The notes under the pieces: generated by a model | The model's database searches: none | Seen by the model: only the letters and a program-made list of their open reading frames with translations | What the model was told of the DNA's origin: nothing | Position numbers and translations under genes: made by a program | Assembly: GCA_019058245.1 (NCBI GenBank) | Contig: JAHPZJ010000027.1 | Span: forward strand, 10,344-74,343 | Direction of reading: 5' to 3' | Origin: Promethearchaeota archaeon | GTDB taxonomy: Archaea; Asgardarchaeota; Lokiarchaeia; Sigyniarchaeales; SOKP01 | DNA: 64,000 nt | Part shown: piece after piece, positions 4,195 to 36,316 of the stretch | How the letters are laid out: each line of letters starts with the position of its first letter | How positions within the stretch are numbered: the first letter of the stretch is position 1

Positions 4195-4296
4195 GCGCTC
4201 GTAGTATAGTGGTCAGTATGCTAGGTTCCCAACCTCGCGACCCGGGAAGTCATTTCATTTCGAGGTTACTCGGGATTTCAATTCCCGGCGGGCGCA
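4195..4296 (+). tRNA. tRNA-Gly(CCC) with an insertion of about 30 nt (about 4247..4276) in the T-arm
   Basis: Acceptor GCGCUCG/CGGGCGC plus A73; D-arm GUAU-AGUGGUCA-GUAU; anticodon arm CUAGG-UUCCCAA-CCUCG. T-arm CCGGG...UUCAAUU-CCCGG becomes canonical only after removing 4247..4276. Confidence 0.7.
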
Positions 4297-7008: not shown

Positions 7009-7542
7009 ATGAGTCAAAAACAAGAATATGAAGGAATAAATCAAGTGTCTATCCTCTCCTTCCAGATTGGATGGGAAGAGTTCTGCATTGATTTGAATGA
7101 TGTTAAGGAAATAATTCAAGCAGGGTTAGTAAGAAAATTGCCTAAAAGCTTAGATTACATAGATGGAATCTATAATTATAGAGGAGAAATTATTCATGTA
7201 ATTAACTTAAAGAAAAAACTAGAATTGGATCAATCTCTATTATATCAATCTCGAAATTCCTCATATAAACAAGATTTGAAATCTACGAAGAAATTCATCA
7301 TCATCCTAAAGATTGATAACAATTTAATTGGGGTTTATACAGATTCTATCCTTAGTATCGATCATATAAACCCTTCTGAGATAATAGGATTAAGTCCAAT
7401 CTTTCAGACCAGTGTTGCTATTGATTATATTAAAGGAATTATTAAATTCGAAGAAAGACCAAGAATTCTGCTTGATTTAAGTAAAATTTTCAATGATATT
7501 GATAAATTTAGAATTAAGCAAGATTTATCATCTTTAACATAA
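7009..7542 (+). CDS. cheW: chemotaxis coupling protein CheW
   Basis: 177-aa single CheW-like domain (SFQIGWEEFCIDLNDVKEI..., GIYNYRGEIIHVINLKK). Confidence 0.9.
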   Translation: MSQKQEYEGINQVSILSFQIGWEEFCIDLNDVKEIIQAGLVRKLPKSLDYIDGIYNYRGEIIHVINLKKKLELDQSLLYQSRNSSYKQDLKSTKKFIIILKIDNNLIGVYTDSILSIDHINPSEIIGLSPIFQTSVAIDYIKGIIKFEERPRILLDLSKIFNDIDKFRIKQDLSSLT

Positions 7543-7569
7543 AATCAAATAAAAATAGGAGTTGATAAT

Positions 7570-7956
7570 ATGGTAAAAAATGAAAAAAAGAAGGTTCTAA
7601 TAGTAGATGATGCTCAGTTTACGCGTAACATGCTTAAAAACATAATTAATAAAATTGAACAAATTGAAGTTGTAGGTGAAGCTTCAAATGGAGTAGAAGC
7701 AATCTCCTTATATAAAAAATTAAATCCAGACTTAGTTACTATGGATTTAGTAATGCCAGAAAAGGGTGGTATTGAAGCAACAGAGGAGATTCTGAAAATA
7801 AACCCAAAAGCAATAATTATTGTGGTTTCTGCACTAGGTCAAGAAGCTTTAGTTCTTGAAGCAGCAAAAAAAGGGGCAAAAGATTTCATTCAGAAGCCCT
7901 TCAAGAATGAGCAAATCTTAGAGGTAATGAACCGAATACTAAAATCTGGCGAGTAA
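7570..7956 (+). CDS. cheY: chemotaxis response regulator CheY
   Basis: 128-aa receiver domain with VLIVDD, DLVTMDLVMP and KPF; AGGAG lies upstream. Confidence 0.9.
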   Translation: MVKNEKKKVLIVDDAQFTRNMLKNIINKIEQIEVVGEASNGVEAISLYKKLNPDLVTMDLVMPEKGGIEATEEILKINPKAIIIVVSALGQEALVLEAAKKGAKDFIQKPFKNEQILEVMNRILKSGE

Positions 7957-8041
7957 ACTCACCAAGAAGAGTATTATGAATGCAATCATCAAATAAATAT
8001 AAAAAAAAGGAATTAAAATAATAAGGATATAAGGTGATTAT

Positions 8042-10117: not shown

Positions 10118-10171
10118 TTTTTTAAGAAGAATTAAAGTATCAAAAGAAGATAAACTTGGAGGAAACATAAT

Positions 10172-12199: not shown

Positions 12200-12237
12200 T
12201 AAAAAAATAATTAAGATAAAAATTAGGAGGAAGAAAT

Positions 12238-13080
12238 ATGAAACTACAATATTATGAAATGATGGATGATAAATCTAAAAAATATTTATTATATCTCATC
12301 GAACAAGTCTTGCCCCAATTCACTGTAAGTGAACTTAAACTTTTTTTGGAAGATTTTTCTAATAACCTTAAAAATGGAAAAAAGTCTTCAAAATCAGCTA
12401 AAAATTATGTTGAAATAGGAAATGATGCAGGAAAATTAGCTGATTTATCAAACTTAACCATAGAAGAGTTAAAATTAATGTTCCAAATTTATATAAGCCG
12501 AGAAAAAAATGATAAATTTAGTATTAAGTGGCGGTTTTATCAATATCTTAAATACATGTTAGATTTAGACCTAAAATCAGTTAAAGTTAACCAAGATCTT
12601 AATCCAGACTCATTAATTGATTTGATTGTTGAAACCGTAGAAAAAGAAGTAATTCTTATATTATGTTATGATGTTTTAAGTATAGACATTTATAATAAAG
12701 CTATAATTAAGATAAATGAATTTGCAAAGGAAGAAAATTTAATTCCTGATAGAATTATTTTTGCTGTGGGTAAATCATTTCGTAATATACCAATTGATAT
12801 ACCTATAAAAATTATCAACAAGGAGCTTATACCTGAATTATGGATTGAATGGATTGAAGAGAACTGTCCCTTCAATAGAGAAGATTTAATTATTGTAAAT
12901 GATAGAGAACTAAAACTCGCGGGTTTTAACTTTACTAATATAGAGGATATGCTGAATTATATATTTAGATATTCCAATGGTGGGCAAATTACCATATATA
13001 GACAGGTCGATTTTTTTACAGAAGTTGATGAGGATGAACCCGAATTGGAATTAATTTGGAAAGGAATTATGTTAAAATAA
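12238..13080 (+). CDS. hypothetical 280-aa protein inside the che operon
   Basis: ORF with an AGGAGG SD and no recognisable motif. It is not CheR, because no SAM-binding motif is present. Confidence 0.6.
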   Translation: MKLQYYEMMDDKSKKYLLYLIEQVLPQFTVSELKLFLEDFSNNLKNGKKSSKSAKNYVEIGNDAGKLADLSNLTIEELKLMFQIYISREKNDKFSIKWRFYQYLKYMLDLDLKSVKVNQDLNPDSLIDLIVETVEKEVILILCYDVLSIDIYNKAIIKINEFAKEENLIPDRIIFAVGKSFRNIPIDIPIKIINKELIPELWIEWIEENCPFNREDLIIVNDRELKLAGFNFTNIEDMLNYIFRYSNGGQITIYRQVDFFTEVDEDEPELELIWKGIMLK

Positions 13081-13121
13081 AAATTAAACAGAAAAAATAG
13101 GAGAAAAAAGAGGTCAACAAT

Positions 13122-15113
13122 ATGTTAGAAACTGAATTTCAAAATAACGAATTTAAAGATACAATAAACGTAGTAATTATTCAAGTTCTTGATGAAAGAT
13201 ATCTTATAGAAGTTAAAAATATAAAGGAAATTTATGTTCCAGGGGATAATATCATTCCCGTTCCTTTAACAGATAAATCCATACTTGGTATTATTAATAT
13301 AAGAGGAGAAATTTATTCAATTATCTCATTAAGACATAATATATCTGATGATAATGATATTGATTATGGTTTATCTAACACATCACGGATTTTACTATTA
13401 GAATATGAAGACTTAAAAATAGCTTTATTAGTAGATTCCGTAATTGGCGTTAAAAATATTCCCCTTTCAATCTTCAAAAAACAAGGTACTATTGTAAAAA
13501 CAAGTATTGATTTCAGATTGATAAAATTAACTGGAATTTTTCAGGATGAAGCACTTATATTATTAGACCTACAAGCTTTAATTCAACCTTATTTGAAATC
13601 TCAGGTTAAGAAAGTAGAGAAAAAGATAGAACAAAAACCTAAAGTCCTTGAACGTGCTAAAATCCACCCTAAAGTGAAGCCAAAAACAACACCAGAACCT
13701 AGCAGCATTGAATCAGCTGTTATAATCCCTCAAAAAACACCATCTGAAATGCAGCTGACTAAGATTCCAGTAGAAAAAAAACGAAAACAAGTATCATTAT
13801 CGAATGAACAGCAAGATATTCTTAGAGAGATTGGTAATATAGGAACTGGAAACGCTGTTACAGCTTTATCACGACTAGTTAAAAAGAAAATAGATGTTAC
13901 TCTCACAGATGTAGGTATTATACCTTTAAATGAATTACCAAAACAATTTGGTGGTGCTAAAGAGAAAGTATGCGGGATTTTTTGTCATATAGATAAACCA
14001 TCTCAAGCAACTATTTTAAATATTTTTGAAATGCAACCACTAATGAAATTGATAGCACAATTAGCGGGGCCTCAATCTAAGATAGATCCTAAAAAGGTGA
14101 AATCTAAAAAAGATCTTGATGATTTTGCTATTTCCACTATTGTAGAGATGGGTAATATTATGGCAGGGCATTATGCCTCTGCATTAGCTGATTTATTAGA
14201 AACAAAAATGCTGATTGATATTCCGGAATTTACAATGAGTAAAGCTGGAGAAATTGGAGAATTTCTTTCTAAAGAATTAGAATCTATTGCGGAGTATTTT
14301 ATTATAATAAAAACTTCAGTAAACGTAGCGGATTTGAAACTGACAGGTATGTTCTTCTTTATCCCTGATCTTGAAACGTTAAAGACATTTTTCAATAAAT
14401 TAGGTATTGAACATGATATACCTGTCAAGATAATGACAACTAAAAGAGCAACTGAAATCCCAAGTATCGATAAGATAAAGCTTTCAGAAGTGCAAAGAGA
14501 TGCGTTACAAGAAGTCGGAAATATTGGTGCTGGAAATGCCGCTAACGCCTTAGCTCAAATGATTAACAAAAGAGTAGATATAAATATTCCATCAGTAGAG
14601 ATGGTTGAATTGGATGAGTATGCAAATACTATGAGTAATAAAAATGAGACCCTTTTGGTCGCTTGGAGTAATGTTACTGGTAAAACTCGAGCTACTGTCC
14701 TGACATTGTTTAATATAAAAGATGCTATTGATATAACCTCAATAATAGTAGATGATAGAGATAAAAAACAAATCGATCTTAGAAAAAAAATTAGTAAAGC
14801 GTCTGATTTTCCTGAGCTTTATCATAGTGCAATATCTGAACTAGGGCATATATTAGGTAGCCATTATGTAAGTGCAATTGGGGATTTATTAGGTATAAGA
14901 TTAATGACAGAACCTCCAGATATGAGCGTGGACACGGGACGTCAATTATTTAAAATTTTAAAAGAGGAAATTGGATTACTAAAAAAATTATCACTGGTTA
15001 TTACTACAAATGTGATTATCACAGACATTAAAGTTACTGGTACTTTCTTGTTCATTCCCAACTTAGAAACATTACAAGAATTATTGGAGGCACTTTTAAA
15101 GTTTTATTCTTAA
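13122..15113 (+). CDS. CheW-CheC-CheC fusion protein (CheY-P phosphatase-like)
   Basis: The N-terminal CheW-like domain (IIQVLDERYLIEVKNIKEI..GIINIRGEIYSIISL) is followed by a Lys/Pro-rich linker. Two CheC-type modules follow, carrying ExxN sites: REIGNIGTGNAVTALS, VEMGNIMAGHYASALA, QEVGNIGAGNAANALA, and a degenerate SELGHILGSHYVSAI. Confidence 0.8.
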   Translation: MLETEFQNNEFKDTINVVIIQVLDERYLIEVKNIKEIYVPGDNIIPVPLTDKSILGIINIRGEIYSIISLRHNISDDNDIDYGLSNTSRILLLEYEDLKIALLVDSVIGVKNIPLSIFKKQGTIVKTSIDFRLIKLTGIFQDEALILLDLQALIQPYLKSQVKKVEKKIEQKPKVLERAKIHPKVKPKTTPEPSSIESAVIIPQKTPSEMQLTKIPVEKKRKQVSLSNEQQDILREIGNIGTGNAVTALSRLVKKKIDVTLTDVGIIPLNELPKQFGGAKEKVCGIFCHIDKPSQATILNIFEMQPLMKLIAQLAGPQSKIDPKKVKSKKDLDDFAISTIVEMGNIMAGHYASALADLLETKMLIDIPEFTMSKAGEIGEFLSKELESIAEYFIIIKTSVNVADLKLTGMFFFIPDLETLKTFFNKLGIEHDIPVKIMTTKRATEIPSIDKIKLSEVQRDALQEVGNIGAGNAANALAQMINKRVDINIPSVEMVELDEYANTMSNKNETLLVAWSNVTGKTRATVLTLFNIKDAIDITSIIVDDRDKKQIDLRKKISKASDFPELYHSAISELGHILGSHYVSAIGDLLGIRLMTEPPDMSVDTGRQLFKILKEEIGLLKKLSLVITTNVIITDIKVTGTFLFIPNLETLQELLEALLKFYS

Positions 15114-15234
15114 ATTAATCATTAAGAATTATTTTTATCTCAATTTTATTCTAAAATTTCAAAATCGAATGAAGAAGATTTATATTTAAAATAAATCTAA
15201 ATAGAATATTAAAAATTATAGATAGGGATTAAAT

Positions 15235-15789
15235 ATGTTAAAAAGCGGTTATTACGACTTTATTTATGAAGTACAAGGTGAAACACTTAAACTAAGGCCC
15301 GAGAAGATGTTTGATCCCAATTGCGTGTATTTAATAGTAGATAAGGAGTTAAAACTTATTTGGATCTGGGCGGGTAGTCATTCTCGATTATTTCATCGAT
15401 ATATGGCAGCTAATTTTGCAGGAAAACTCAAGACAAAAAAGAAATTTTATAATTTTAAATATGAAGTCGTTAAAGAAGGTATTGAACCTCCTGAATTTCA
15501 TATAATATACAAAGAGATTAAAGAACAAAATTCTACTATAACCTATCCTGGGCAATCTAGATATATTGTTAAACAAACTCAAGCCCCAAGTAGTTATGGG
15601 GGAACTTCATCTTTAGATACAAGTTTAGAATCTAAAATAATTCTAGATGGTCGAGAATTATCAAAATCTGTCAAATCTCGTATTAAAAAAATTTTATCTG
15701 AGATAAAAGAAATTCAATCACATATAACTTATTCAATTAATCATATCCAACAACGTTTTGCCGAAATTGAAAAATTATTAGAAAATTAG
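15235..15789 (+). CDS. gelsolin-like domain protein with C-terminal coiled coil
   Basis: The N-terminal 95 aa follow the gelsolin-repeat pattern: CVYLIVDKELKLIWIWAGSHS...AANFAGKL...EVVKEGIEPPEF. Compare the remembered gelsolin G1 pattern AYVILKT..LHYWLGNECS...QHREVQGFESATF. Confidence 0.6.
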   Translation: MLKSGYYDFIYEVQGETLKLRPEKMFDPNCVYLIVDKELKLIWIWAGSHSRLFHRYMAANFAGKLKTKKKFYNFKYEVVKEGIEPPEFHIIYKEIKEQNSTITYPGQSRYIVKQTQAPSSYGGTSSLDTSLESKIILDGRELSKSVKSRIKKILSEIKEIQSHITYSINHIQQRFAEIEKLLEN

Positions 15790-16062
15790 AGTGTTTAGAA
15801 ACGATAAGAATTAAGGATATTAGATTTGATTCGAATTATTTAAAACTGCTAACGTACCTATTAATTAATAATATTGAATTTACTTCTGATTATAATAGAA
15901 GAAATATTGTCAAAAGAAGAATCAGTTATTGAATTATTGAAAGGAGGTAAAAGTCAAGAGAATTGTTAATTTTAGGAAAAATAGAGTAAAAAATTTAATC
16001 AGAATATAATTAAAAACTTAAAGTTTGTTATAATCATATGTAATTGAAAAAAGAGGGCTCAA

Positions 16063-17205
16063 ATGTCGATTAAGGTTCTTTTAGCGGAAGATTCAAGCTA
16101 TCAGAGAAAGCTAATAACTGATATGCTATTATCAAGCAAGGAGATTTCTAAAGTAGAAGTTGCTAAAAATGGAAAAGAAGCTATTAAAAAAATTGAGTCA
16201 GTAAATCCAGATGTTTTAATTTTAGATTTAATAATGCCTAAAATAGACGGAATAACGGTGTTCAAATTCCTTTCAGAACATTATCCAATACCTACAATAA
16301 TATTTACAGCTAAATCTCCAGAAACATTAGATGATTCTGTTCAAGCTTTACTTTTAGGAGCATTTGATTTTATTGTAAAACCAAAAGGACTATGGAAAGA
16401 AGAACTCCCCAAATTAAAAGAAAAATTAATTTTTAGTACGCTTTATGCGAGTAAAATAAAAAAGACCTATGAAAAACGAAATTTATTAATAAAGAAATCT
16501 TTCGAGAAACCTCTTAATTTGATAACTGAACAATATCAAATAATTAAAAAGCCTAAACCAAAGATTGAAAAAGCTCTGAAAATAACACCCTTACTTGAAG
16601 GTAAATTAACACCCAATGCAATAGTTATAGGAACTAGTACTGGTGGTCCTAGAACCTTAAAAACAATATTAAAAGATATTCCAAAAGATTTTTCATCACC
16701 AATTTTAATGGTTCAACATTTAGATGAATTCTTTATGAAAGAATTCTCAAAATCATTAAATCAGGTCAGTAAAATTGAAGTTAAAATTCCTGTTAATGGG
16801 GAAAAAATTCTTCCAGGAATTGCTTATCTTAGTCCAGGAGAAAAACATATGGAAGTTGCCCAAAGAAACAAGATACAATACATTAAAATACTTGATGGGG
16901 AGCCTGTTAATTTTTGTAAGCCTTCGGTGGATGTTTTATTCCTTTCAGCAGCAAAAGTATATAAGGATCGAATTTTGGGGATCTTACTAACAGGTTTAGG
17001 ACAAGATGGTGCAGCTGGTTTAGAAGCAATTAAAAAAGGAGGAGGCCAAACAATTGCAGAATCAGAACAAACATGTGTGGTATATGGTATGCCTAAAGCG
17101 GCGGTAAAGAGAGGAGCTGCAAATTTAATCTTACCTAATTACCAAATTAAAGAACATATGTTAAAATTTGCTAGAAAAAATAAGGGTAATCCAATATATT
17201 CATAA
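16063..17205 (+). CDS. cheB: chemotaxis methylesterase/deamidase CheB (REC + esterase)
   Basis: Receiver domain (VLLAEDS, DVLILDLIMP) plus an esterase domain with GTSTGGP, MVQHL and GQDGAAGL. Confidence 0.9.
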   Translation: MSIKVLLAEDSSYQRKLITDMLLSSKEISKVEVAKNGKEAIKKIESVNPDVLILDLIMPKIDGITVFKFLSEHYPIPTIIFTAKSPETLDDSVQALLLGAFDFIVKPKGLWKEELPKLKEKLIFSTLYASKIKKTYEKRNLLIKKSFEKPLNLITEQYQIIKKPKPKIEKALKITPLLEGKLTPNAIVIGTSTGGPRTLKTILKDIPKDFSSPILMVQHLDEFFMKEFSKSLNQVSKIEVKIPVNGEKILPGIAYLSPGEKHMEVAQRNKIQYIKILDGEPVNFCKPSVDVLFLSAAKVYKDRILGILLTGLGQDGAAGLEAIKKGGGQTIAESEQTCVVYGMPKAAVKRGAANLILPNYQIKEHMLKFARKNKGNPIYS

Positions 17206-17226
17206 GGTTATAACCAAAACTTTAAG

Positions 17227-17775
17227 GTGAAAAAGATAAAACCCCATGGATGTATTGAAAAACCAAACACTGATGGAAAAATTATCTTACCAATAGGGCA
17301 TTATGCTATTGTAAATTGTAGAAATAAACCAAATAATATTTATACAAAAATATCAATTTATGGATTAGGGTCTTGTATTGCTCTGATACTTTTTGATAGT
17401 AAAAATAAAGTAAGTGGAATGTCTCATATATTACTTCCAAAATGTCAACTAAACAAAAAAATTGAATATCCTCACAAATATGCTGATCTCTCAGCAAATC
17501 TGTTACTTCAAGAATTATTAAACCGTGGAGCAATTAAGAAAAATATAAAAGCTGTGATTGTTGGGGGTTCAAAGATTTTTGAATTAGATGAAAATGGTAT
17601 AGGGATTAATAATATCAAAGCAATTAAAAATGAATTAAAAAAATTAGAAATTAAGATTATAGGAGAAAATACAGGAGGATCTGAAGGAAGAGTTGTCATA
17701 TTTGACACTAAAGATTTCTCAGTCTATGTTAGATTAACAAGAGAATCAAATCTTCAAAAAATAAAGTATTCATGA
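17227..17775 (+). CDS. cheD: chemoreceptor glutamine deamidase CheD
   Basis: 182 aa with GLGSCIALILFD and SHILLP motifs; GTG start. Confidence 0.85.
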   Translation: MKKIKPHGCIEKPNTDGKIILPIGHYAIVNCRNKPNNIYTKISIYGLGSCIALILFDSKNKVSGMSHILLPKCQLNKKIEYPHKYADLSANLLLQELLNRGAIKKNIKAVIVGGSKIFELDENGIGINNIKAIKNELKKLEIKIIGENTGGSEGRVVIFDTKDFSVYVRLTRESNLQKIKYS

Positions 17776-17816
17776 TATAATAATTTTAAAAAGATTTAAA
17801 ATTGAGAGGATTAAAA

Positions 17817-18470
17817 ATGAAAAAGCCAATTGATATAAAATTAACACAAGAACAATTAGACATTTTAAAAGAATTAGGTAATATCGGTTCTGGGCATGCA
17901 ATAACAGCACTTTCCAAATTACTTAATATTAAAATCGATGTTTCATTGACATCCATAGATATTGTTCCTTTTTGGAAAGTTCCCGAACTATTTAATAAGT
18001 CTGCAATTGATATGGTTGGAATCTATTCTAAGATTCCCTTTAAATCAGATTTAGCAATTATCCAATTATTTACAAAAGTATCGATAGTAAGTCTAATCAA
18101 TATTTTATCTGATAATGACAAAATTATGGTTGATGATATAAAAACTATTGATGATTTGGATGATTTTTCAGTAAGTATTATAAGTGAAATTGGAAATATC
18201 TTATCTGGTCATTATACTAATGCTTTAGCTGATATGCTATCAATTAAACTGGTACCAAATGTTCCAAAAATCGCATTAGATTCTTTGAATGCTATTTTAG
18301 AAACCTTAATTGCTAAATTTTCTCAATTGTCAGATTATATGATTTTAATAAATACAAAATTAATAGTTTTAGATGTAAATATAGAAGGTATAATCTGTCT
18401 TATCCCTTCAATCAATATCTTAAAAAATCTATTTAATATTCTAAACTTAAAATACGATCTAAATCTCTAG
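17817..18470 (+). CDS. cheC: CheY-P phosphatase CheC
   Basis: Two ExxN sites (LKELGNIGSGHAITALS and ISEIGNILSGHYTNALA). The ORF track starts at TTG 17802; the ATG at 17817 follows GAGAGGA and is preferred. Confidence 0.85.
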   Translation: MKKPIDIKLTQEQLDILKELGNIGSGHAITALSKLLNIKIDVSLTSIDIVPFWKVPELFNKSAIDMVGIYSKIPFKSDLAIIQLFTKVSIVSLINILSDNDKIMVDDIKTIDDLDDFSVSIISEIGNILSGHYTNALADMLSIKLVPNVPKIALDSLNAILETLIAKFSQLSDYMILINTKLIVLDVNIEGIICLIPSINILKNLFNILNLKYDLNL

Positions 18471-18611
18471 GAAAGATATTTGATGATATGTACAAATAAA
18501 CAAGCTTAATTTATTTTCAGTGAAATTTTATTTTTGGGTTTTAGTAACATATATATTTTCTAACTTTACTATTTATTAGAATAATTAATTAAATATAATT
18601 AGGAGAGTTAT

Positions 18612-19970
18612 TTGACGATTGATGTGGTTATTGCTGATGACAGCGCATTTTTAAGAAAAAATATAGCAAATATTCTAAAAGAACATGATTCAATTGATAT
18701 TACTGGATTTGCGAAGGATGGAGAAGAAGCTGTTAAACTTGTTAAAGAAATTAGCCCAGATGTCTTAGTTTTAGATTTAGTAATGCCTAAAATGAATGGA
18801 TTGGATGCATTCAAACTAATAATGGAGGAAAATCCCACGCCTACTGTTGTCCTTTCAGCTATTAGTCCAAAAAAACTGGACTCTTCCATTCAAGCTCTTT
18901 TAATGGGTGCTTTTGATTATATCATAAAACCAGGGGGTATTGGAGCAAAACCATTGCCAAGATTTCGTGAAGAATTACTCGCTAAAGTATTGTTAGCGTC
19001 TCAATCACAAATTAAAAAAATATTCAGAAAAGGAGAAATTATATTAAAAAAAGGAAGATCTCTCCGCCAGGAGATGGTTAATCGAATTTTTGATTTTGGA
19101 CAATATCTTAACAGATTAGAACCTATTCAAGAAATTGAGGAAGAACAAAAATACGATTCTTTCGAAATTATGAAGGTTAAGGCAATCCTCAAGGATGAAA
19201 CTAAGGGTAAATTAGCAGAGTCAGCATCGAGTGAAGAAATTAATAAGGCAATAATAAGTACATCAGAAACAAGTGAAGAAAGGATAGAACAGATATCAAG
19301 AAAATCAGCATTACTAAAAAAATCAACAAATGCACAATTTAAAAAGAGTAAAACAGTAAATATTCCTGATCTCTCCCCTATTAAAGGAACTACAATAAGT
19401 TCAAATATAATTGTTATAGGTGCTAGCGTTGGAGGACCTAGAACAATAACAACAATATTAAAAGAAATTCCAAGAAATTTTAAGGCACCAATCTTAATCG
19501 TTCAGCATTTATCTTCTCATTTTACAGATGCTTTTGCAGATAATTTAGATATGGAATGTGAACTCAAAATAAAAGTAGCTAATAATGGAGATTATATTAA
19601 ACCTGGTTATGTTTATCTTGCCCCTGGAGATGTGCATATGGAAATCTCTGTTGAAAATAATACACCTCTAATCAAAGTTTATAAAGGAAGTCCTGTTAAC
19701 TTTTGCATGCCTTCTATAGATGTATTATTTTTTTCAGCAGCAAAAGTTTATAGAAATCATGCTATGGGAATAATTCTAACTGGAATGGGCTCAGATGGTG
19801 TAGAAGGTCTGGGAGCAATTAAAAGAGTGGGTGGAAAGACAATAGCAGAAGATAAAAGTACTTCTATACTTTATGCTATGCCAAAATTTGCCTCTGAGAA
19901 AGGATATGCTAAACTTGTATTACCAAATTATAATATAAAAGATGAAATGATAAAATTCATTGGAAATTAG
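18612..19970 (+). CDS. cheB: second CheB paralogue with a long inter-domain linker
   Basis: Receiver domain (VVIADDS, DVLVLDLVMP), a long charged Ser/Glu/Lys-rich linker, then an esterase domain with GASVGGP, IVQHL and GSDGVEGL. TTG start follows AGGAG. Confidence 0.85.
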   Translation: MTIDVVIADDSAFLRKNIANILKEHDSIDITGFAKDGEEAVKLVKEISPDVLVLDLVMPKMNGLDAFKLIMEENPTPTVVLSAISPKKLDSSIQALLMGAFDYIIKPGGIGAKPLPRFREELLAKVLLASQSQIKKIFRKGEIILKKGRSLRQEMVNRIFDFGQYLNRLEPIQEIEEEQKYDSFEIMKVKAILKDETKGKLAESASSEEINKAIISTSETSEERIEQISRKSALLKKSTNAQFKKSKTVNIPDLSPIKGTTISSNIIVIGASVGGPRTITTILKEIPRNFKAPILIVQHLSSHFTDAFADNLDMECELKIKVANNGDYIKPGYVYLAPGDVHMEISVENNTPLIKVYKGSPVNFCMPSIDVLFFSAAKVYRNHAMGIILTGMGSDGVEGLGAIKRVGGKTIAEDKSTSILYAMPKFASEKGYAKLVLPNYNIKDEMIKFIGN

Positions 19971-19999: not shown

Positions 20000-22183
20000 T
20001 TACCACGAAATGCCCTTTAAAAATTTGATATCCTGGATCAATCTTTGAGATTCATGTTTTGGAACCTCCATATACGCAAAAAATTCATTTTGCCAAAATG
20101 CTCTTCCAGAAGAAATACTACGTATCTCTTCAGTAAATTTTATAGAATTTCTAACTGATAATAATATTTCAATTATTGCTTGATATTCATTATCTTGATC
20201 AATAGTTTTAATTTTAGCCGAATATTTTGATAGTAGGGAAATTACATTTTTAATATAATTTGGGGGAAGTTGGATAATTGTGTGATATATTGGTTCCAAT
20301 AAAATTAGTTCTGCTTCAGTCAAACCTCTTTTTATAGCATCATAAAACATAGCAGATATTTCAGTAAACAAACTCTCATGGGCGATATTTTCAAAACTTA
20401 AACTTTCAATTATTAATTTAATTTCTGTGAGTTTTTCTGAACATATTGGACCATTTAAATGAATATTTTCAAATATCTCAAGAATCATATTTTTGAAAAA
20501 ATCATCTGATTCTCCCTTATAAATTATTATATTTTGATCAAAATCACATTTCCAGAAATATTCAATTTCTTCCTCACTAAGTAAAGTTTTTTCCTTCAAT
20601 ATTTCTTTTAATTTGCTAATAGGTTTAATTGTTTTATAATCAATATTTCGAAAAAACCTTAAAGTCTTGTTATCTAATCTTTCAATCTTTATTTTAAGGG
20701 AACCTTTACCATTTGGCGAAGTAACAGAAATTAAGGAAGAATTCAAACGACAAGATTCTTTAAAAACTGCTCGAGGTTCTGATATTGAAAGATTTACACC
20801 CTTCTTACCTATTTCATTAGCAGAAACTTCAAGATGTAGTGGTCCCATTCCACTCAATAAAAATTCACCATTTTCCTCATTTACTTCAAATTTTAAATTT
20901 GGATCCTCTACTAATAGATTTTCAATTAATTCTTTCATTTTATCTAAATCTCTTAAATACTCTGGTTCAATAGAAACCGTCATTACAGGATTAGTAATAT
21001 ATTTCACACTTTCGAATGGCACCATTTCGTCAATACTGTTGCTATCTATTATGGTTTCACTACTCTTTATATTTTTAAGACCTTCTATAGCTACTATATT
21101 ACCAACAGGTACTTTTTCTGCTTGTTCCCTTCTTTGACCCATAAAAATAGCAATTCGTTGAATTCTCTCATATCTATTTTCATTTAAAAGAAAAATTTCC
21201 TTTCTATTCGTACAGCTACCTGAAAATATTCTTCCAGTGGATATTAAACCATGTTTGTCTACTTGAACTTTACTTAAATATACAATTAATGGACCATTAG
21301 GATCACAATTAACCATTGCCTTTCCTAATTTAGAATTAATATCTCCATCCCATATTTTTTTAATTCTATATTTTTGTGCTTCTATAGGATTTGGTAAATG
21401 ATCAACAACCATTTCCAATATGGCTTTATGAATTGGAAAAAATGTGGCCAAATCCGCGTAAGTTTTTTTAGAATAGGTCTCTTTCTTATATCTTTCTCTA
21501 ATATCTTTAAATTTTAAGCTACTTTTTTCTAGAATACTTAATGTAAAACCCCATTTATGAAGTGCCGACCCAAAAGCAACATTACCACCAAGAGGCGAAA
21601 CTTTCCATCTTTTATTAAAAGGATGTGTAGCATATCTTTCTATAAGATCGTTGAATGATTTGATAATTCTTACATATTTCTTTCTTATATCCTCATCGGA
21701 AAGTTTCAATTCTCTTATTAAACGATCAACTTTATTAATAAATAGTATAGGCTTAACACCCTCTTGTAAAGCTTGTTTAATGACTGTTTCAGATTGACTA
21801 ATTACTTCTTCAACGGCATCAACCACCACCACTACGCCATCTACCAATCTAAGAGCTCTAGTTACTTTTCCACTGAAGTCTAAATGACCTGGAGTATCTA
21901 CTAAATTAACAAGAAAAGGATCATACCCTTCTAATGATTTCTCATAGTATAAAGATATGTTTGCAGACTTCATAGTTATGCCTCGTCTTTGTTCTTCATC
22001 AAGAAAATCTAAAGCACGGGCTTCTCCTGCTAAATCTGAGGATAGAAAACCCGCTTCGCTTAGTAGAGAATCAGAGAGTGTTGTTTTTCCATGATCTATA
22101 TGACCAACTAAACCAAAATTTCTAATATTTTGAGTTTTTTCCATAAGATTCAGTATTTCCGCAATTTCTTTTCTGCGAGGCAT
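20000..22183 (-). CDS. elongation factor 2 paralogue (aEF-2-like GTPase without a recognisable diphthamide motif)
   Basis: 727 aa with G1 GHIDHGKT, G3 DTPGH, G4 NKVD and aEF-2-like domain order. The domain IV tip reads ENIAHESLFTEISAMFYDAI where canonical aEF-2 has H-R-G-x-x-Q. Confidence 0.85.
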   Translation of the reverse strand: MPRRKEIAEILNLMEKTQNIRNFGLVGHIDHGKTTLSDSLLSEAGFLSSDLAGEARALDFLDEEQRRGITMKSANISLYYEKSLEGYDPFLVNLVDTPGHLDFSGKVTRALRLVDGVVVVVDAVEEVISQSETVIKQALQEGVKPILFINKVDRLIRELKLSDEDIRKKYVRIIKSFNDLIERYATHPFNKRWKVSPLGGNVAFGSALHKWGFTLSILEKSSLKFKDIRERYKKETYSKKTYADLATFFPIHKAILEMVVDHLPNPIEAQKYRIKKIWDGDINSKLGKAMVNCDPNGPLIVYLSKVQVDKHGLISTGRIFSGSCTNRKEIFLLNENRYERIQRIAIFMGQRREQAEKVPVGNIVAIEGLKNIKSSETIIDSNSIDEMVPFESVKYITNPVMTVSIEPEYLRDLDKMKELIENLLVEDPNLKFEVNEENGEFLLSGMGPLHLEVSANEIGKKGVNLSISEPRAVFKESCRLNSSLISVTSPNGKGSLKIKIERLDNKTLRFFRNIDYKTIKPISKLKEILKEKTLLSEEEIEYFWKCDFDQNIIIYKGESDDFFKNMILEIFENIHLNGPICSEKLTEIKLIIESLSFENIAHESLFTEISAMFYDAIKRGLTEAELILLEPIYHTIIQLPPNYIKNVISLLSKYSAKIKTIDQDNEYQAIIEILLSVRNSIKFTEEIRSISSGRAFWQNEFFAYMEVPKHESQRLIQDIKFLKGISW

Positions 22184-23452: not shown

Positions 23453-25363
23453 ATGAGTTTTGAAAGTGAATTGAAACGAATCAAGGATGAAATTGTCCAG
23501 AACCTTCCACCAGAAATAAGAGTCAAGAAGATTGAGTTTGAAGGACCTGAGATAGCTGTTTATTCTGAAAATTCAGACGTAGATGCAATTGAAAGCTCAA
23601 CTATTTTAAAAGATTTAGCAAAAACAATGCGAAAAAGAGTTGTTTTTCGATGGAATGTTGATAAACGCAAAGATCCTGTTGAAACAGAAAGTTATATTAG
23701 AAATTTAGTAGCTGAAGATGCAGAAATTTCTAATATTGAATTTGATCATACCAGAGGAGAAGTAATAATAGAATCTGGGAAACCTGGACTCGTTATTGGT
23801 AAAAAAGGAGTTAATCTAAAAGAAATCAGGACTAACACATATTGGCAACCTAAAACTATAAGAACACCACCATTAACCTCAAGAACAATTCAATTAATAA
23901 GAGGAATGCTTTCAAAAGAACGTCAAACTCAAAAGGATATTCTTTTAAGAATCGGTAAAAGAATTCATAGACCTGCTCTTTTTAAAAACTTAAACATTAG
24001 GTTAAGTGCCTTAGGTGGTTTTAGAGAAGTAGGGAGATCTTGCATATTAATGCAAACAAGGGATAGTAATGTACTACTAGATTGTGGATTGAATGTTGGG
24101 AATATCAATGATAGATTTCCATACTTTGATGTTCCTGAATTTTCATTAAGAGATCTTGATGCTGTTATTATATCACATGCTCATATGGATCATTGTGGCC
24201 TTGTTCCATTTCTATACAAATATGGTTATCGTGGACCTATTTATTCCACATTACCAACACGAAATCTATCAACAATGCATCAATTAGATTTCATTCAAGT
24301 TTGTGAAAAGGAAGGCGTTCCATCACCGTATTCGAAAAGGGATGTAAAATCAACAGTCCTTCATACAATCCCACTTTCATGGGGGAAAGTAACCGATATT
24401 GCACCAGATATAAAATTAACACTTCACAATTCTGGGCATATATTAGGATCATCAATGGTACATTTGCATTTTGGAAAAGGGGACTATAATTTTGTTTATA
24501 CAGGAGATTTTAAATTTCAAAAAACAAGATTATTAGAGAAAGCTGCTGTGAAATTCCCTAGAGTAGAAAGCCTATTAATTGAAGCCACTTATGGTGGTCC
24601 TCAAGATAGAATTCCTAGTAGACAAGAATCTGAAAAAGAACTCAAACAAATATTAAACTCTACCCTTAAAAGAGGTGGAAAAATTTTAGTTCCAGTTTTA
24701 GCTGTAGGTAGAGCTCAAGAATTGTTAATAGTCTTGGAAGAATATATTTCGAAAGGCTTTATTGATAAAGTACCAATCTTTATAGATGGATTGATAAGTG
24801 AAGCAACCGCAATTCATACTGCTAATCCTGATTTTCTTAGTAGCGATTTAAGAGAAAAAATCTTACATCAAGGAAAGAATCCATTTCTAAGTGATTACTT
24901 TGAAACAGTTTCAGCTCAAGAGGAAAGATTAGATATTATAAAAGGTGGACCATGTATAATCATGGCAACTAGTGGAATGCTTATTGGAGGGCCATCTGTG
25001 CAATATTTAAAAGGATTAGCTAATGATGCAAAAAATTCATTGGTTTTTGTATCCTATCAAGTTTCAGGTACACTAGGGAGTCGAATTCAGCGTGGATTTC
25101 GAGAATTTCAGTATGTTGATGCTAAAGGACGAACCCAACTCGTAAGATTGAACTTAAAAGTATTTACTCTTGAAGGTTTCAGTGGTCATTCATCTCGTAG
25201 TCAAATATCTCAATTTTTGAGAAGAATTCAACCACGACCTAAAACAATTATAGTAAACCATGGGGAAGAAAGTAAGTGTATCAGTCTATCGACAATGATA
25301 CATAAGAAACTCAGAAAGAGTACAAAGAGCCCGAAGAATCTTGAAACTGTATTCTTAAAATAA
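23453..25363 (+). CDS. archaeal CPSF1-type KH / beta-CASP ribonuclease
   Basis: 636 aa with N-terminal KH segments (VIGKKGVNLKEI), metallo-beta-lactamase motif HAHMDHCG and a beta-CASP region. Confidence 0.9.
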   Translation: MSFESELKRIKDEIVQNLPPEIRVKKIEFEGPEIAVYSENSDVDAIESSTILKDLAKTMRKRVVFRWNVDKRKDPVETESYIRNLVAEDAEISNIEFDHTRGEVIIESGKPGLVIGKKGVNLKEIRTNTYWQPKTIRTPPLTSRTIQLIRGMLSKERQTQKDILLRIGKRIHRPALFKNLNIRLSALGGFREVGRSCILMQTRDSNVLLDCGLNVGNINDRFPYFDVPEFSLRDLDAVIISHAHMDHCGLVPFLYKYGYRGPIYSTLPTRNLSTMHQLDFIQVCEKEGVPSPYSKRDVKSTVLHTIPLSWGKVTDIAPDIKLTLHNSGHILGSSMVHLHFGKGDYNFVYTGDFKFQKTRLLEKAAVKFPRVESLLIEATYGGPQDRIPSRQESEKELKQILNSTLKRGGKILVPVLAVGRAQELLIVLEEYISKGFIDKVPIFIDGLISEATAIHTANPDFLSSDLREKILHQGKNPFLSDYFETVSAQEERLDIIKGGPCIIMATSGMLIGGPSVQYLKGLANDAKNSLVFVSYQVSGTLGSRIQRGFREFQYVDAKGRTQLVRLNLKVFTLEGFSGHSSRSQISQFLRRIQPRPKTIIVNHGEESKCISLSTMIHKKLRKSTKSPKNLETVFLK

Positions 25364-31285: not shown

Positions 31286-31537
31286 ATGAAACTGGAACGT
31301 ATTAAAATTGAAAAAAAAAGATTTCTTACCCTTACGGTTATCTTCATAATAGCAGGGTCAATTCTTCTTGTTTTATCTGGTATTTGGGTTGTATCATGAG
31401 GTGAAATCGTGTATTCTTACGAATATTTAATGATTCCCGCAATAATATGCTATGTGGGGGCAATTGCTTTTTTTATAGTATATTTAATAGTAGTTATAAT
31501 GCAATTTCGAATGAAAAGAATAAATCAAGCAAATTAA
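31286..31537 (+). CDS. candidate small membrane selenoprotein, copy A (UGA at 31397..31399 read as Sec)
   Basis: ATG 31286 to TAA 31537 is open except for one TGA. There are two predicted TM helices. The post-TGA frame is conserved with copy B (PAIIC[YF]VGAI), and a SECIS-like element lies 48 nt downstream. Confidence 0.55.
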
Positions 31538-31584
31538 AAATTATATCGAGAAAATGAGTATATATAAGATCTAACTTGAGAAAA

Positions 31585-31637
31585 ATGATTTCTATAAAAA
31601 AATTTTAGTTATAGGATGATTATCCCCGCAAGGGACT
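31585..31637 (+). promoter_or_regulatory. SECIS-like 3' stem-loop, copy A
   Basis: AUGAU, then an 8-bp helix (31590..31597 with 31609..31616) with an A-rich loop, then UGAU, then the hairpin UCCC-CGCAA-GGGA. It is near-identical to 32052..32102. Confidence 0.5.
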
Positions 31638-31774
31638 CAAGTTTTTTTATTTATATTTATAATGAATCATAAAAAAATAATCAAGAATTTCACACACTAA
31701 TATTAAAAAGAAAAAACTGATTTATATAGAATAATTATATAATAAATTAATCAACATTTAAAGGGAAAGATTCA

Positions 31775-31990
31775 ATGAAATATAGCACAAGTAGAGAAAT
31801 ATTTTCTGGATTTACGGTTTTCTTTGTAATTATCGGTATATGTCTTCTTTTATTATCTGGTCTTATGGCTTGAGGAACACAAGTATTTCCATACGCGTGG
31901 GTTCCAGCAATTATATGTTTTGTTGGTGCGATAATTTCCTATGATTCATATAAAAAAGTAGTAAAACAAGATTCTCGAAATAAAAAATAA
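31775..31990 (+). CDS. candidate small membrane selenoprotein, copy B (UGA at 31871..31873 read as Sec)
   Basis: ATG 31775 to TAA 31990 is open except for one TGA at the position homologous to copy A. No in-frame ATG/GTG/TTG follows the TGA. A SECIS-like element lies 62 nt downstream. Confidence 0.55.
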
Positions 31991-32051
31991 ATTATGTTCC
32001 TAAAGAATATACTGATAAACTCTGTTTAATTGTCATCATTAATCCAAAAAA

Positions 32052-32102
32052 ATGATTCCTATAAAAAAATCTTAGTTGTAGGATGATTATCCCCGCAAGG
32101 GA
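32052..32102 (+). promoter_or_regulatory. SECIS-like 3' stem-loop, copy B
   Basis: AUGAU, then an 8-bp helix (32057..32064 with 32076..32083), then UGAU, then the hairpin UCCC-CGCAA-GGGA (32090..32102). Confidence 0.5.
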
Positions 32103-32120
32103 TTTGGATTACATATTTTT

Positions 32121-32480
32121 TTAACCAGTTCTTTTGATTATATGATATCCAAATTTGGACTTTACTGGTTGTGAAATCTCACCTATCTTCAAATTCGTGC
32201 ATGCATTCCAGAACTCCGGAACCATATCTCCTTTAGCAAATTCACCTAAATTACCACCTCTTTTCTTACTCGAACATGTGGAATATTGGTTTGCCAATTG
32301 CTCAAATTTTTCACCTGCCTTTAAATCCTCATAAATCTCTTGAGCTTTAGTAAATTTTTCTACTAAGATGTGACTTGCTTTAATTTTTCCTCCACGAATG
32401 GGATTCCCTCCTGTTTTTGAGCCTCCTCCTTTTGATTGTGATCCTTTTTGAAATCCCTTTCCATATTTATTTTTTCCCAT
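32121..32480 (-). CDS. parvulin-type peptidyl-prolyl isomerase with Gly/Lys-rich N-terminal tail (Par14-like)
   Basis: 119 aa. The tail MGKNKYGKGFQKGSQSKGGGSKTGGNPIRGGK is followed by a PpiC domain (ASHILV, GGNLGEF, FGYHIIKR). Confidence 0.85.
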   Translation of the reverse strand: MGKNKYGKGFQKGSQSKGGGSKTGGNPIRGGKIKASHILVEKFTKAQEIYEDLKAGEKFEQLANQYSTCSSKKRGGNLGEFAKGDMVPEFWNACTNLKIGEISQPVKSKFGYHIIKRTG

Positions 32481-33051: not shown

Positions 33052-35424
33052 TTATAATTTAATAGATCTCGCAATAACAGTTCTGAAATTTTCGACATCA
33101 TTAACTAATTTATCAGCGTCTTCATCGTTAATCTTATCATCTTTACCGTATTTATTCAATTGAGTAAGCCAAAACTCAATTCTACCAAGAATAGCTTCTT
33201 TTTCACCTAGTACTTTTCGCAGTCGTACAAAAGTATCATGTAATTTGTTTCTTATATTTTGAGCTTTCCATCTCAACATACAATAATCAGAAATTTCTGC
33301 CAAATTTTGGGTTATCGCCATTACATCAATAGTTTTTTCTCGTTCCTCTGATTTAATCTTCCGTATTATATTTATTTCCTCAAATAAAAGCTCTATTATC
33401 TTAGCAAGGAAGCCAGTAAGTTGACCTGAATGGTTACACCAAACTCTAACCTCTAAAGACTGATTTACCTCAGATACATAAACTCGTGTTACAATTCTTC
33501 CACCACCAACCTTTGCTTCGGAACAATGCCAACTTTCTGCTTCATATTTTCCTTTCGCATCACTACCTTCATGAGAAGTGACTGTACTTACTTCAAAACG
33601 CTTTATTGTTCTTACTGCCGCTCTAAATGCTAAGCGGGGGTCTAAATCAGCAATTAAAAATGCTCGAGCATCATTAGGAAGATCTGCAATAGCTATTTGG
33701 ATATCTTCAATTGTAGCTAAACAAGAAACTACCAAAGGACATTTTATTTGCACTTCTTTTTTTCTTATATGGACAGTTTTTTTGTCTCCTGATGCCGTTT
33801 TGTAGATTACATCACCACCAATATTCGATATCCCACATTCTTTTGGTTCTAAATAGAAATCAACACCTCTAGAATTTTTAGCTTCGATAACTGGTATATT
33901 TATTAGATGATCCTTCGCTTTATAACTAGTTGGTACATCTAAGAGTACTTTAACTGAATTAATTGTCATACTACCTTGATTACGGATGACTACTTTAAAG
34001 TGTAATTGACCTCCAATAAAATCATATTCACGAACTACTTCAATTTTCCCACCATCAGTAGGTTCTTTAGTAATTTTCTGTGTTGATTGATCTTTTACTT
34101 CCATTGGTACACTATAAGCCACAAATGTTCTCTTTGACATATCAATATATCCATCAATATCACCGCGAGCAATAATCTGAGCTAAATTTTCTTCAATGCT
34201 TGATTCAGTTACTCCTAATCTATTAGCTAATTCTCTTAAAGGCATAGTTCTATATGCTCTTGCAAGTTCTTTTATTTTCTTCTCCATATATTTATTTGTC
34301 ATAAATTCTCTTCTTTGTGTAAAGATTCCTTTGATAGAACCTGTTTTTATAAGTTCATGAAGGCTTTTTCTTGCTAATTCTACAGCAATTTTTAATTTTG
34401 TGGCTAGTTTTGAAAGCTCAAATAATCCTGTCTCTTTAGAATAGTTTTTAATATCTTGATAAATTTGATCTGCTGTAATGATTTCATTTCCACGATCTGC
34501 AAAAAATCCGTTAATGGATTTTGTTCTCATTATGTTTACACAAAATGACTTTACAAGTTCCGTTGGAATGTGAAAATTATTTGCAAGTTGTTTTAAGGAG
34601 ACCCTACCTTTAGATTTTACTTCTTTTATCAAATTATCTAGGATATATTTTTGAGTATAATACGTCTCTTTATCTAATGAGAAAGATCCTTTTATTTGGA
34701 ATTGATTAATTAATTTATAAATTACTTTTATAGCTATATCAGAACTCATATCAAGCATTATTCCTAAATCTGCTACCTTAACTGAACCTTCACTCTGAAA
34801 CTTTGCTAATACTTTTTTCCGTATTTCGGTAGAGATATAATAAAACATCTGATTTTTTTGATCAATAATTCCATAGATTCTTTCTTCTTCTATATATTTA
34901 TTGATGAATTTAACCATCTGTTCGGCTGAGATATTAAATGAATTCATAATTGTTGAAAAGTTAATTATCGGGGCTCTTTTTAATAGATCCAAGAAACATT
35001 TAGGACATACTTCCCTTCCTATAATATGTCTTAATTTCTTACTACATAATGTCATTTTACTTCCTTTCATAAGGCCATATCTTATCGCTTCTCTTGCTAA
35101 TTTCTCTTTTGATGGAAAAAATAAACCTGGGGTTTTTAGATATGAATTCCAAGCTTCTGGACAATCAGTATTAGTACATTCTAAATAATATTGACCTGAA
35201 GATAACCTTTCCAATCTTAAAAGATGCTTACAAACAGGACATTCACTATTATCTACAACGGTACATTTATAGTTTCTTTCTATTGCCTTTACTTTTGAAT
35301 AGAAGAGATTGTGTTTTCGACACTCATGAGTTTCTGTGGTTGCTATATGATTAATACAGAAACTGGAATTACATTTTTCACACGTAAAGTCGATTCTTTC
35401 GCTTTCACAAAATAAACATTTCAT
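33052..35424 (-). CDS. large multidomain protein: AN1-like zinc finger, further CxxC ribbons, four winged-helix-like repeats, beta-sandwich-like C-terminal region
   Basis: 790 aa. C3-x2-C6-x8-C15-x2-C18-x4-C23-x2-H26-x6-H33-x-C35 is close to the AN1 pattern. Four segments of about 60 aa repeat, each ending ...G(S/D)I(K/D)G(I/Y/F)F. Confidence 0.55.
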   Translation of the reverse strand: MKCLFCESERIDFTCEKCNSSFCINHIATTETHECRKHNLFYSKVKAIERNYKCTVVDNSECPVCKHLLRLERLSSGQYYLECTNTDCPEAWNSYLKTPGLFFPSKEKLAREAIRYGLMKGSKMTLCSKKLRHIIGREVCPKCFLDLLKRAPIINFSTIMNSFNISAEQMVKFINKYIEEERIYGIIDQKNQMFYYISTEIRKKVLAKFQSEGSVKVADLGIMLDMSSDIAIKVIYKLINQFQIKGSFSLDKETYYTQKYILDNLIKEVKSKGRVSLKQLANNFHIPTELVKSFCVNIMRTKSINGFFADRGNEIITADQIYQDIKNYSKETGLFELSKLATKLKIAVELARKSLHELIKTGSIKGIFTQRREFMTNKYMEKKIKELARAYRTMPLRELANRLGVTESSIEENLAQIIARGDIDGYIDMSKRTFVAYSVPMEVKDQSTQKITKEPTDGGKIEVVREYDFIGGQLHFKVVIRNQGSMTINSVKVLLDVPTSYKAKDHLINIPVIEAKNSRGVDFYLEPKECGISNIGGDVIYKTASGDKKTVHIRKKEVQIKCPLVVSCLATIEDIQIAIADLPNDARAFLIADLDPRLAFRAAVRTIKRFEVSTVTSHEGSDAKGKYEAESWHCSEAKVGGGRIVTRVYVSEVNQSLEVRVWCNHSGQLTGFLAKIIELLFEEINIIRKIKSEEREKTIDVMAITQNLAEISDYCMLRWKAQNIRNKLHDTFVRLRKVLGEKEAILGRIEFWLTQLNKYGKDDKINDEDADKLVNDVENFRTVIARSIKL

Positions 35425-35584: not shown

Positions 35585-36316
35585 CTAAAAAGAAGATTCT
35601 GGGAATATATAAACCCCTAAAAATGATAAGATCATAATTATAGTATTAACTAATATTATAATAATTAACATAGTTAATATTATCCAATTCCTTTTGGATG
35701 GAGCAGATTTCATAATTTGAGATGTTCCATGCTTAGCTAAAGCTAAGGGAAATAATCCGATAAATGTACCTAATGAAAAATAAAACACAGTAAAAATTCC
35801 ATCAATAAACCCCAACCAACCACTTAACGAAAATGCTAAACATTGAGAATAAATGAAAAGCTCAAAAATACATGGAGCAAATCCTGCTAATATCCCAAAT
35901 AAATAAGGAGTCTTGTTTTTTTCCCAATTAAATTCAAATATTTCATCTTTTCTTTTTGAATGAGGCATATAACCCTTGCTTGCATAAATAAATAACAAAA
36001 TAAATCCTGCAAACATGGATGTTAATGCTCCAAAAAAATAGATTACATTTTTTGGTATTTCATGTATTCCTGGTATCAAGAGACGAGGAATAAAACTAAT
36101 TAAAATAGTAATGCTGGCAATTAACATATTAGAGGTCATTAATCCTAAGCCATAAAGTACTAAGATAATGAGACTTTTTTTAGGAGTTTTCGAGATCCCA
36201 AATGACCAAAAGAAAAATATTGCTTTATCTTCACAAGGCATTAAAGTATGGAATATTCCTATAATAAAAGCGGGAGCAAAAATTAGTAATAATGGCTGAG
36301 GATTAAATTCTAACAT
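35585..36316 (-). CDS. polytopic membrane protein (DsbD_2/UreH-like, putative transporter)
   Basis: 243 aa with about 6 TM segments. GIFHTLMPCEDKA and FAPCIFELF motifs; the assignment is weak. Confidence 0.4.
   Translation of the reverse strand: MLEFNPQPLLLIFAPAFIIGIFHTLMPCEDKAIFFFWSFGISKTPKKSLIILVLYGLGLMTSNMLIASITILISFIPRLLIPGIHEIPKNVIYFFGALTSMFAGFILLFIYASKGYMPHSKRKDEIFEFNWEKNKTPYLFGILAGFAPCIFELFIYSQCLAFSLSGWLGFIDGIFTVFYFSLGTFIGLFPLALAKHGTSQIMKSAPSKRNWIILTMLIIIILVNTIIMILSFLGVYIFPESSF

Follow-up and report, generated by a model that had tools for sequence, protein, structure and literature searches.

Two lokiSECIS elements behind tandem in-frame-UGA genes for candidate small membrane selenoproteins in an Asgard archaeon

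The 64,000-nt stretch of DNA analyzed here (the window; G+C content about 28%) contains two short tandem open reading frames, A and B, each with one in-frame UGA and each followed in its 3' untranslated region by a structured RNA element (Table 1). Elsewhere this genome uses UGA as a regular stop codon, which ends 9 of 49 long ORFs, and none of the ORFs identified as genes in the window is split by UGA; the same scan also flagged further short same-frame pairs around TGA.

Table 1. Positions of the two UGA-containing genes, their 3' elements and the adjoining gene within the window. CM R1 is the covariance model described in the text; its E-values are rough, the calibration having been shortened.
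Feature	Position	Strand	Sequence or remarks
ORF A	31286..31537	+	83 codons; in-frame UGA (Sec38) at 31397-31399; TAA at 31535-31537; Cys55 in PAIIC
SECIS A, three-way junction	31573..31643	+	CM R1 34.3 bits, E 7e-6
SECIS A, lower helix	31573-80 / 31636-43	+	AACUUGAG/CUCAAGUU
SECIS A, spacer between lower helix and AUGA		+	AAAA
SECIS A, AUGA	31585-31588	+	
SECIS A, upper stem, 5' strand	31589-31597	+	UUUCUAUAA
SECIS A, apical loop	31598-31608	+	11 nt; AAAAAUUUUAG
SECIS A, upper stem, 3' strand	31609-31617	+	UUAUAGGAU
SECIS A, GA	31618-31619	+	followed by UUA
SECIS A, mini-hairpin	31623-31635	+	UCCC-CGCAA-GGGA
T7 run after SECIS A	31642..31648	+	overlaps the last two pairs of the lower helix
ORF B	31775..31990	+	71 codons; in-frame UGA (Sec33) at 31871-31873; TAA at 31988-31990; Cys48 in PAIIC
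SECIS B, three-way junction	32041..32110	+	CM R1 43.5 bits, E 3e-8
SECIS B, lower helix	32041-48 / 32103-10	+	AAUCCAAA/UUUGGAUU
SECIS B, AUGA	32052-32055	+	
SECIS B, upper stem	32056-64 / 32076-84	+	
SECIS B, apical loop	32065-32075	+	11 nt; AAAAAUCUUAG
SECIS B, GA	32085-32086	+	
SECIS B, mini-hairpin	32090-32102	+	
T7 run after SECIS B	32116..32122	+	at the convergence of B and the parvulin gene (minus strand)
Parvulin (PPIC rotamase) gene	32121-32480	-	convergent with B

Several other genes characterize the surroundings of A and B. A chemotaxis cluster (7009-19970, plus strand) encodes CheW, CheY, CheA, a CheW-CheC fusion, two CheB proteins, CheD and CheC, and is followed by the genes for aEF-2 (20000-22183, minus strand) and aCPSF1/FttA (23453-25363, plus strand). 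A 790-aa protein encoded at 33052-35424 (minus strand) combines DDRGK, E3 UFM1-ligase, PCI and VPS28-like regions, a eukaryotic-signature (UFMylation-like) architecture that serves as an Asgard marker. At 35585-36316, on the strand opposite to A and B and 3.6 kb away from them, lies a gene for a DsbD_2/CcdA-type transmembrane thiol-disulfide electron-transfer protein; it is possible that this protein is a redox partner of the A and B products. A candidate tRNASec at 4195-4296 (plus strand) was rejected, being a tRNA-Gly with the anticodon CCC (Rfam, 37.1 bits) whose T-arm region contains an insertion of 37 nt and which ARAGORN misses; it is probably an archaeal tRNA interrupted by a non-canonical intron.

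Proteins of the window share 90%-identity clusters with metagenome-assembled genomes (MAGs) labeled Lokiarchaeota, Promethearchaeota or Lokiarchaeia, and together with the DDRGK/UFM1-ligase/PCI/VPS28 protein these clusters indicate an Asgard host, most likely of the Lokiarchaeia. Relatives of window proteins with more than 90% identity have been deposited under the conflicting labels Odin-, Thor-, Hod-, Loki- and Promethearchaeota, so that NCBI labels of MAGs in this group are unreliable; the "Odinarchaeota" label, for instance, would wrongly imply that a class reported to be without selenocysteine (Sec) uses it. One related MAG has counterparts at more than 90% amino-acid identity of the parvulin (MFW9989390.1, on a 5,385-bp contig), the CheA-type protein (MFW9988629.1, deposited as "CheW") and aCPSF1 (MFW9970774.1). 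The Lokiarchaeia clade is reported to use Sec (PMC11227280; PMC13188914).

The AUGA of element A begins 47-48 nt past the TAA of ORF A and that of element B 61 nt past the stop of ORF B, and the in-frame UGA codons lie 188 nt (A) and 181 nt (B) upstream of their elements, inside the range of 30-500 nt given in the literature for Asgard UGA-to-SECIS distances. In both copies AUGA and GA flank an upper helix of nine positions (eight standard pairs and one U.U), the apical loop opens with AAAAA, and the strands can adopt the antiparallel U.U / G.A / A.G / U.U arrangement. A 51-nt core (31585-31635 in A, 32052-32102 in B) is identical at 48 of 51 positions, and of its three substitutions one falls in the loop while the two in the stem are neutral for pairing (U.G to C-G and U-A to U.G, from A to B). 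The lower helix that encloses this core is wholly different in sequence between A and B and nevertheless keeps its pairing, a case of full covariation, whereas the flanks outside the core and lower helix cannot be aligned. Since the lower helix also encloses the G+C-rich mini-hairpin, the latter forms one arm inside a three-way junction and does not stand apart as a terminator hairpin. Folding energy by itself is undistinguished (z from -0.6 to -2.1), in line with the AU-rich composition of the RNA.

Much of this architecture had been proposed in the initial annotation of the sequence. Its coordinates and sequences for element A, including the start 48 nt after the TAA, are all correct, and so are the near-identical second copy behind B with three substitutions, the strong divergence of the coding regions (42% protein identity) and of the other flanks, the possible non-Watson-Crick quartet and the unpaired adenines that open the loop. 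The eight standard pairs of its 8-bp helix are present, but the helix is better described as nine positions with a U.U, and the lower helix had been overlooked; likewise, the 3' hairpin UCCC-CGCAA-GGGA was placed correctly in sequence and position but, as an arm of the junction, is not free-standing.

To which class these elements belong is made clear by comparison with lokiSECIS, defined by Mariotti et al. (2016, PMC4989117) as AUGA followed by a 9-bp stem with GA (or AA) after it, and an 11-nt loop that opens with five residues, mostly A, and closes with an ultraconserved G, which usually has an A before it. Elements A and B show each of these published features (AUGA/GA, a 9-position stem and an 11-nt loop of the form AAAAA..AG) and lie in the 3' UTR behind an ORF with an in-frame UGA, as lokiSECIS do, though farther from the stop codon than in genes for PrxL, an established Asgard selenoprotein. 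A strict lokiSECIS descriptor, applied to both strands, found two sites in the window, whereas 200 dinucleotide shuffles gave 0.01 on average; a weak descriptor match at 37668 (minus strand), with a 7-bp stem, is not reported by the covariance model and was rejected.

As references we used loci of the Asgard PrxL selenoprotein of the FFRGNWU type, whose proteins were taken from the supplement of Huang et al. (PMC11227280); truncated gene calls for them were found and the loci retrieved. Six distinct 3' ends (loci L008, L009, L010, L013, L039 and L041) were obtained, and all six contain AUGA, a stem of nine positions, an A-rich loop of 11-12 nt with GAG at its end, and GA followed by CA. A covariance model (CM R1) trained on these six Lokiarchaeia-type PrxL elements alone, with the window copies excluded, was run over the entire window on both strands with filters off, and matched exactly two sites, elements A and B (Table 1); the next-best match reached only 15.3 bits, at a similarly rough E of 0.4. 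In a model-guided joint alignment of the eight elements 95.5% of cells are paired and 13 of the 20 pairs show two-sided (compensatory) changes, pairing values attained by none of 500 shuffles, while slid controls were paired at 30-53%. RNAalifold, run independently, yields the same three helices.

Thus, the A and B elements are genuine lokiSECIS, a class already described and since broadened to "eSECIS-like type I" by Huang et al. (2024, PMC11227280), and a eukaryote-like SECIS in an archaeon, known since 2016, is not new here. The initial annotation had pointed to eukaryote-like SECIS elements reported for Lokiarchaeota, and this comparison fits both the published features and the two covariance-model sites. 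It had also stated that finding the element widely behind genes free of in-frame UGA would speak against a SECIS, and nothing of the kind is seen: the 64 kb hold two copies, both behind UGA-containing paralogs. The only new aspect of the RNA find is likely to be the genes that the two copies serve, a tandem of tiny membrane-protein genes absent from the seven Asgard selenoprotein families listed by Huang et al. (2024, PMC11227280).

The PrxL elements and those of the window share, besides the lokiSECIS hallmarks, the lower helix (AAUCCCAA/UUGGGAUU in PrxL, where the 5' strand corresponds to the final codons of the gene) and the three-way junction formed with the 3' mini-hairpin. They differ in that the PrxL elements overlap the stop codon or start at most 5 nt from it (six genes examined), whereas those of the window start about 47 and 61 nt past the stop, and in that the first stem position of the window elements is U.U, their spacer after GA is UUA (CA in PrxL) and their loop ends in UAG (GAG in PrxL). 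At two PrxL loci (L039:1557-1560 and L041:1551-1554) the UGA stop codon doubles as the UGA of the AUGA core, an overlap also noted in the literature for some PrxL genes. A T-rich run is found 3' of known PrxL SECIS elements as well.

In every lokiSECIS examined (six PrxL elements, A and B) a G+C-rich mini-hairpin lies 2-3 nt past the core GA, inside the lower helix; its loop in PrxL is GUGA, GUGU or GCAA. The main text of PMC4989117 and of PMC11227280, figures aside, does not describe this arm or the three-way junction. A second PrxL subfamily ("MKDKF...INUPFCRWH") was dropped as a lokiSECIS reference, since its 3' ends (L003:1765-1850, L004:1805-1890, L005:1778-1865 and L007:1805-1885) carry a different structure. 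This structure is a conserved three-way junction of the same topology, in which the outer helix is GAUUUGG/CCAAAUC, the hairpin has 9-11 bp and an A-rich loop that closes with GAG, and the mini-hairpin is AAGU-UAGCCAC-ACUU, with AAGUUAGCCAC invariant. It is devoid of the AUGA...GA quartet, and both the descriptor and CM R1 fail to match it; possibly it is a SECIS variant that lacks the core, or the true SECIS of these genes may lie elsewhere.

With the eukaryotic type I SECIS (RF00031, SECIS_1) the window elements have in common the AUGA...GA non-Watson-Crick quartet, the unpaired adenines at the opening of the loop, the 3'-UTR position and a distant upstream UGA as target, but their stem has only nine positions and the 3' mini-hairpin sits inside the internal loop. 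The Rfam SECIS families gave no match to them at the gathering threshold or at E<=10, where only snoRNA and miRNA noise appeared, and from this result and the 9-bp stem it follows that they are not, strictly speaking, members of the eukaryotic SECIS family. Of the eukaryote-type core proposed initially, the AUGA/GA motif therefore stands and membership in that family does not. The negative Rfam result agrees with reports that eukaryotic SECIS tools fail on lokiSECIS-type elements (PMC4989117, PMC11227280). Euryarchaeal SECIS elements (Methanococcales, Methanopyrus), recognized by a GAA_A bulge that separates the lower stem from a G+C-rich upper one (PMC11227280), share the 3'-UTR location and the purpose, but their core differs; the window elements have neither the GAA/A bulge, as first noted in the initial annotation, nor a G+C-rich upper stem. 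They are not archaeal C/D-box sRNAs either, given that the boxes are absent and no significant Rfam snoRNA match was obtained.

The genes upstream of the two elements are paralogs, with 42% amino-acid identity and aligned UGA codons (...LSGxxxxU-G...). The similarity extends to both sides of the UGA, with E 2e-5 for the N-terminal halves and 2e-9 for the C-terminal halves, and tblastn of A against B runs across the UGA in a single frame at about 1e-8, values that are possibly somewhat inflated since the proteins are short and hydrophobic. Conservation flanking the UGA is thus observed, on the paralogs only; no third paralog was found in the window by tblastn. Both proteins contain an invariant PAIIC.VGAI motif, two hydrophobic segments with the predicted Sec between them, positively charged N- and C-tails, and a conserved Cys 15-17 residues past the Sec. 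By the positive-inside rule, the charges suggest that both tails are cytoplasmic, in which case the Sec would lie where the first hydrophobic segment ends on the outer side, close to the conserved Cys of the second. The spacing of these two residues at the outer face suggests a membrane-surface selenol/thiol redox site or a chalcogen/metal-binding site, an assignment that is plausible but speculative.

Short membrane-anchored proteins with a single Sec are known from other systems, and the comparison is one of analogy only. In eukaryotic SELENOK and SELENOS the Sec lies near the cytosolic C-terminus, instead of between two hydrophobic segments as in A and B. The bacterial MerT-family selenoproteins, also short, membrane-anchored and with one Sec, couple it with Cys for metal handling (Haft, bioRxiv 10.1101/2022.07.06.499078). 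No sequence similarity of A or B to any family, including these, was detected.

Indeed, searches for relatives of the A and B proteins returned nothing that held up. No homologs were found in a word-indexed set of 5.8 billion protein clusters, and a 612-aa match to the C-terminal halves among 1.84 billion representatives proved spurious and repetitive, that set containing no true homolog. A peptide-motif scan of GTDB genomes gave four pattern matches, none of them confirmed, and Pfam, NCBIfam and PDB gave only sub-threshold compositional matches (such as DUF2269, whose 22 bits fall short of the cutoff of 28, and MAG0110). Neither the protein sets nor GTDB yielded a homolog from another organism with Sec or Cys at the aligned position, and thus no Sec/Cys pair, and A and B match none of the 11 archaeal selenoprotein families listed in PMC13188914. 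The sensitivity of such searches is low, as short UGA-split ORFs are seldom called as genes, and the motif scans used here were strict. The family may be restricted to its lineage, or it may be invisible because UGA-split micro-ORFs go uncalled.

At the DNA level, a pattern for this SECIS subtype matched twice in GTDB species representatives, 19 times in JGI metagenomes and not at all in IMG/VR. All of these matches were attributed to chance, given that none has a paired stem or is recognized by CM R1; the closest (L019 and L029) form six of nine pairs and lie in non-coding repetitive DNA. The contigs bearing the neighboring genes were all 100% identical to the window.

We consider it very probable that A and B are functional lokiSECIS elements that recode the upstream UGAs as Sec in tandem small membrane selenoproteins, and three other readings of the locus were weighed against this one. 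If the genes were decaying or non-functional, their SECIS elements being genuine but Sec no longer inserted, and only a 37-aa or 32-aa peptide produced or the locus silent, it would be understandable that no ortholog or Cys homolog was found in the databases searched, that the elements lie farther from the stop than in known PrxL genes, and that the Sec machinery (tRNASec, SelB, PSTK, SepSecS and SelD) is absent from the 64-kb window. However, both paralogs retain the start, the frame, the aligned UGA, the downstream PAIIC.VGAI and the stop, and both elements are intact with pair-preserving substitutions, a parallel intactness that would not be expected of two independent relics; we therefore regard decay as unlikely.

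The AUGA/GA core could form a kink-turn in an RNA with another role, such as an L7Ae-binding motif or a C/D-box-like sRNA, the ORF halves then being micro-peptides or non-coding, and weak snoRNA-like Rfam matches do occur nearby (E 0.9-8.5, all of them either encoded by the other strand or well short of threshold). This is very improbable, as no Rfam family reaches its threshold, the C box RUGAUGA and the D box CUGA are absent from 31570-31650 and 32040-32115, and the full 70-nt architecture, down to the loop sequence and mini-hairpin, is that of elements behind established selenoprotein genes. Least credible of all, and hardly to be entertained, is a generic intergenic repeat or terminator that came to lie behind both paralogs by duplication of the whole unit. 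A T-run does follow both copies, that behind SECIS A probably being an archaeal oligo-T terminator, and a tandem duplication would carry along any 3' element with its gene. In archaea, however, oligo-T suffices for transcription termination, which speaks against a terminator role for the structured element itself; furthermore, the coding regions (42% identity) and flanks have diverged while the core is retained at 48 of 51 positions and the lower helix has covaried, the element is absent from the many other gene ends of the window, and it is matched by a model built from known SECIS elements.

Under the favored reading of A and B as functional lokiSECIS, each 3'-UTR element would fold into the lower helix, the upper stem with its 11-nt loop and the short G+C-rich 3' mini-hairpin, and the AUGA/GA core that joins the upper stem would be able to form tandem sheared G.A pairs in a kink-turn-like geometry. 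On the mRNA, such an element would recruit an archaeal SelB/EFSec-like elongation factor bearing Sec-tRNASec, possibly through a putative kink-turn-binding adaptor, which we propose because no SBP2 is known in archaea from the literature. The in-frame UGA upstream would then be decoded as selenocysteine and not as a stop, and the products would be small paralogous membrane proteins, 83 aa long for A and 71 aa for B.

None of the 11 archaeal selenoprotein families counted in a 2026 review (PMC13188914) consists of small membrane proteins. It seems reasonably likely that A and B represent an unrecognized archaeal selenoprotein family, the twelfth and the first to be membrane-embedded, and that lokiSECIS is a three-way junction with a conserved 3' mini-hairpin. 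As to their origin, the 5' flank of element B, AAUCCAAAAAAAUGA, resembles the coding end of a PrxL gene, AAUCCCAAAAAAGAAUGA (L039), which suggests that A and B may have acquired their SECIS from the end of a PrxL gene; this likeness fits the proposal of Huang et al. (PMC11227280) that new selenoprotein genes gain their SECIS from selenoprotein genes already present. Among PrxL orthologs the upper stem is free to vary, whereas the cores of A and B are almost the same despite the 42% protein identity, suggesting that they evolved in concert or that the SECIS module was recently replaced.

Earlier surveys (Huang 2024, PMC11227280; Sun 2021) depend on known families or on Sec/Cys pairs, and a search that starts from the SECIS can bring to light selenoprotein genes that such homology-based surveys overlook. 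The candidate membrane selenoprotein would join a very short archaeal list. Moreover, two natural SECIS variants that differ minimally and share a three-way junction should be useful for studying recognition in the absence of SBP2, and how Asgard archaea recognize their SECIS elements without this protein is relevant to how the Sec system of eukaryotes arose.
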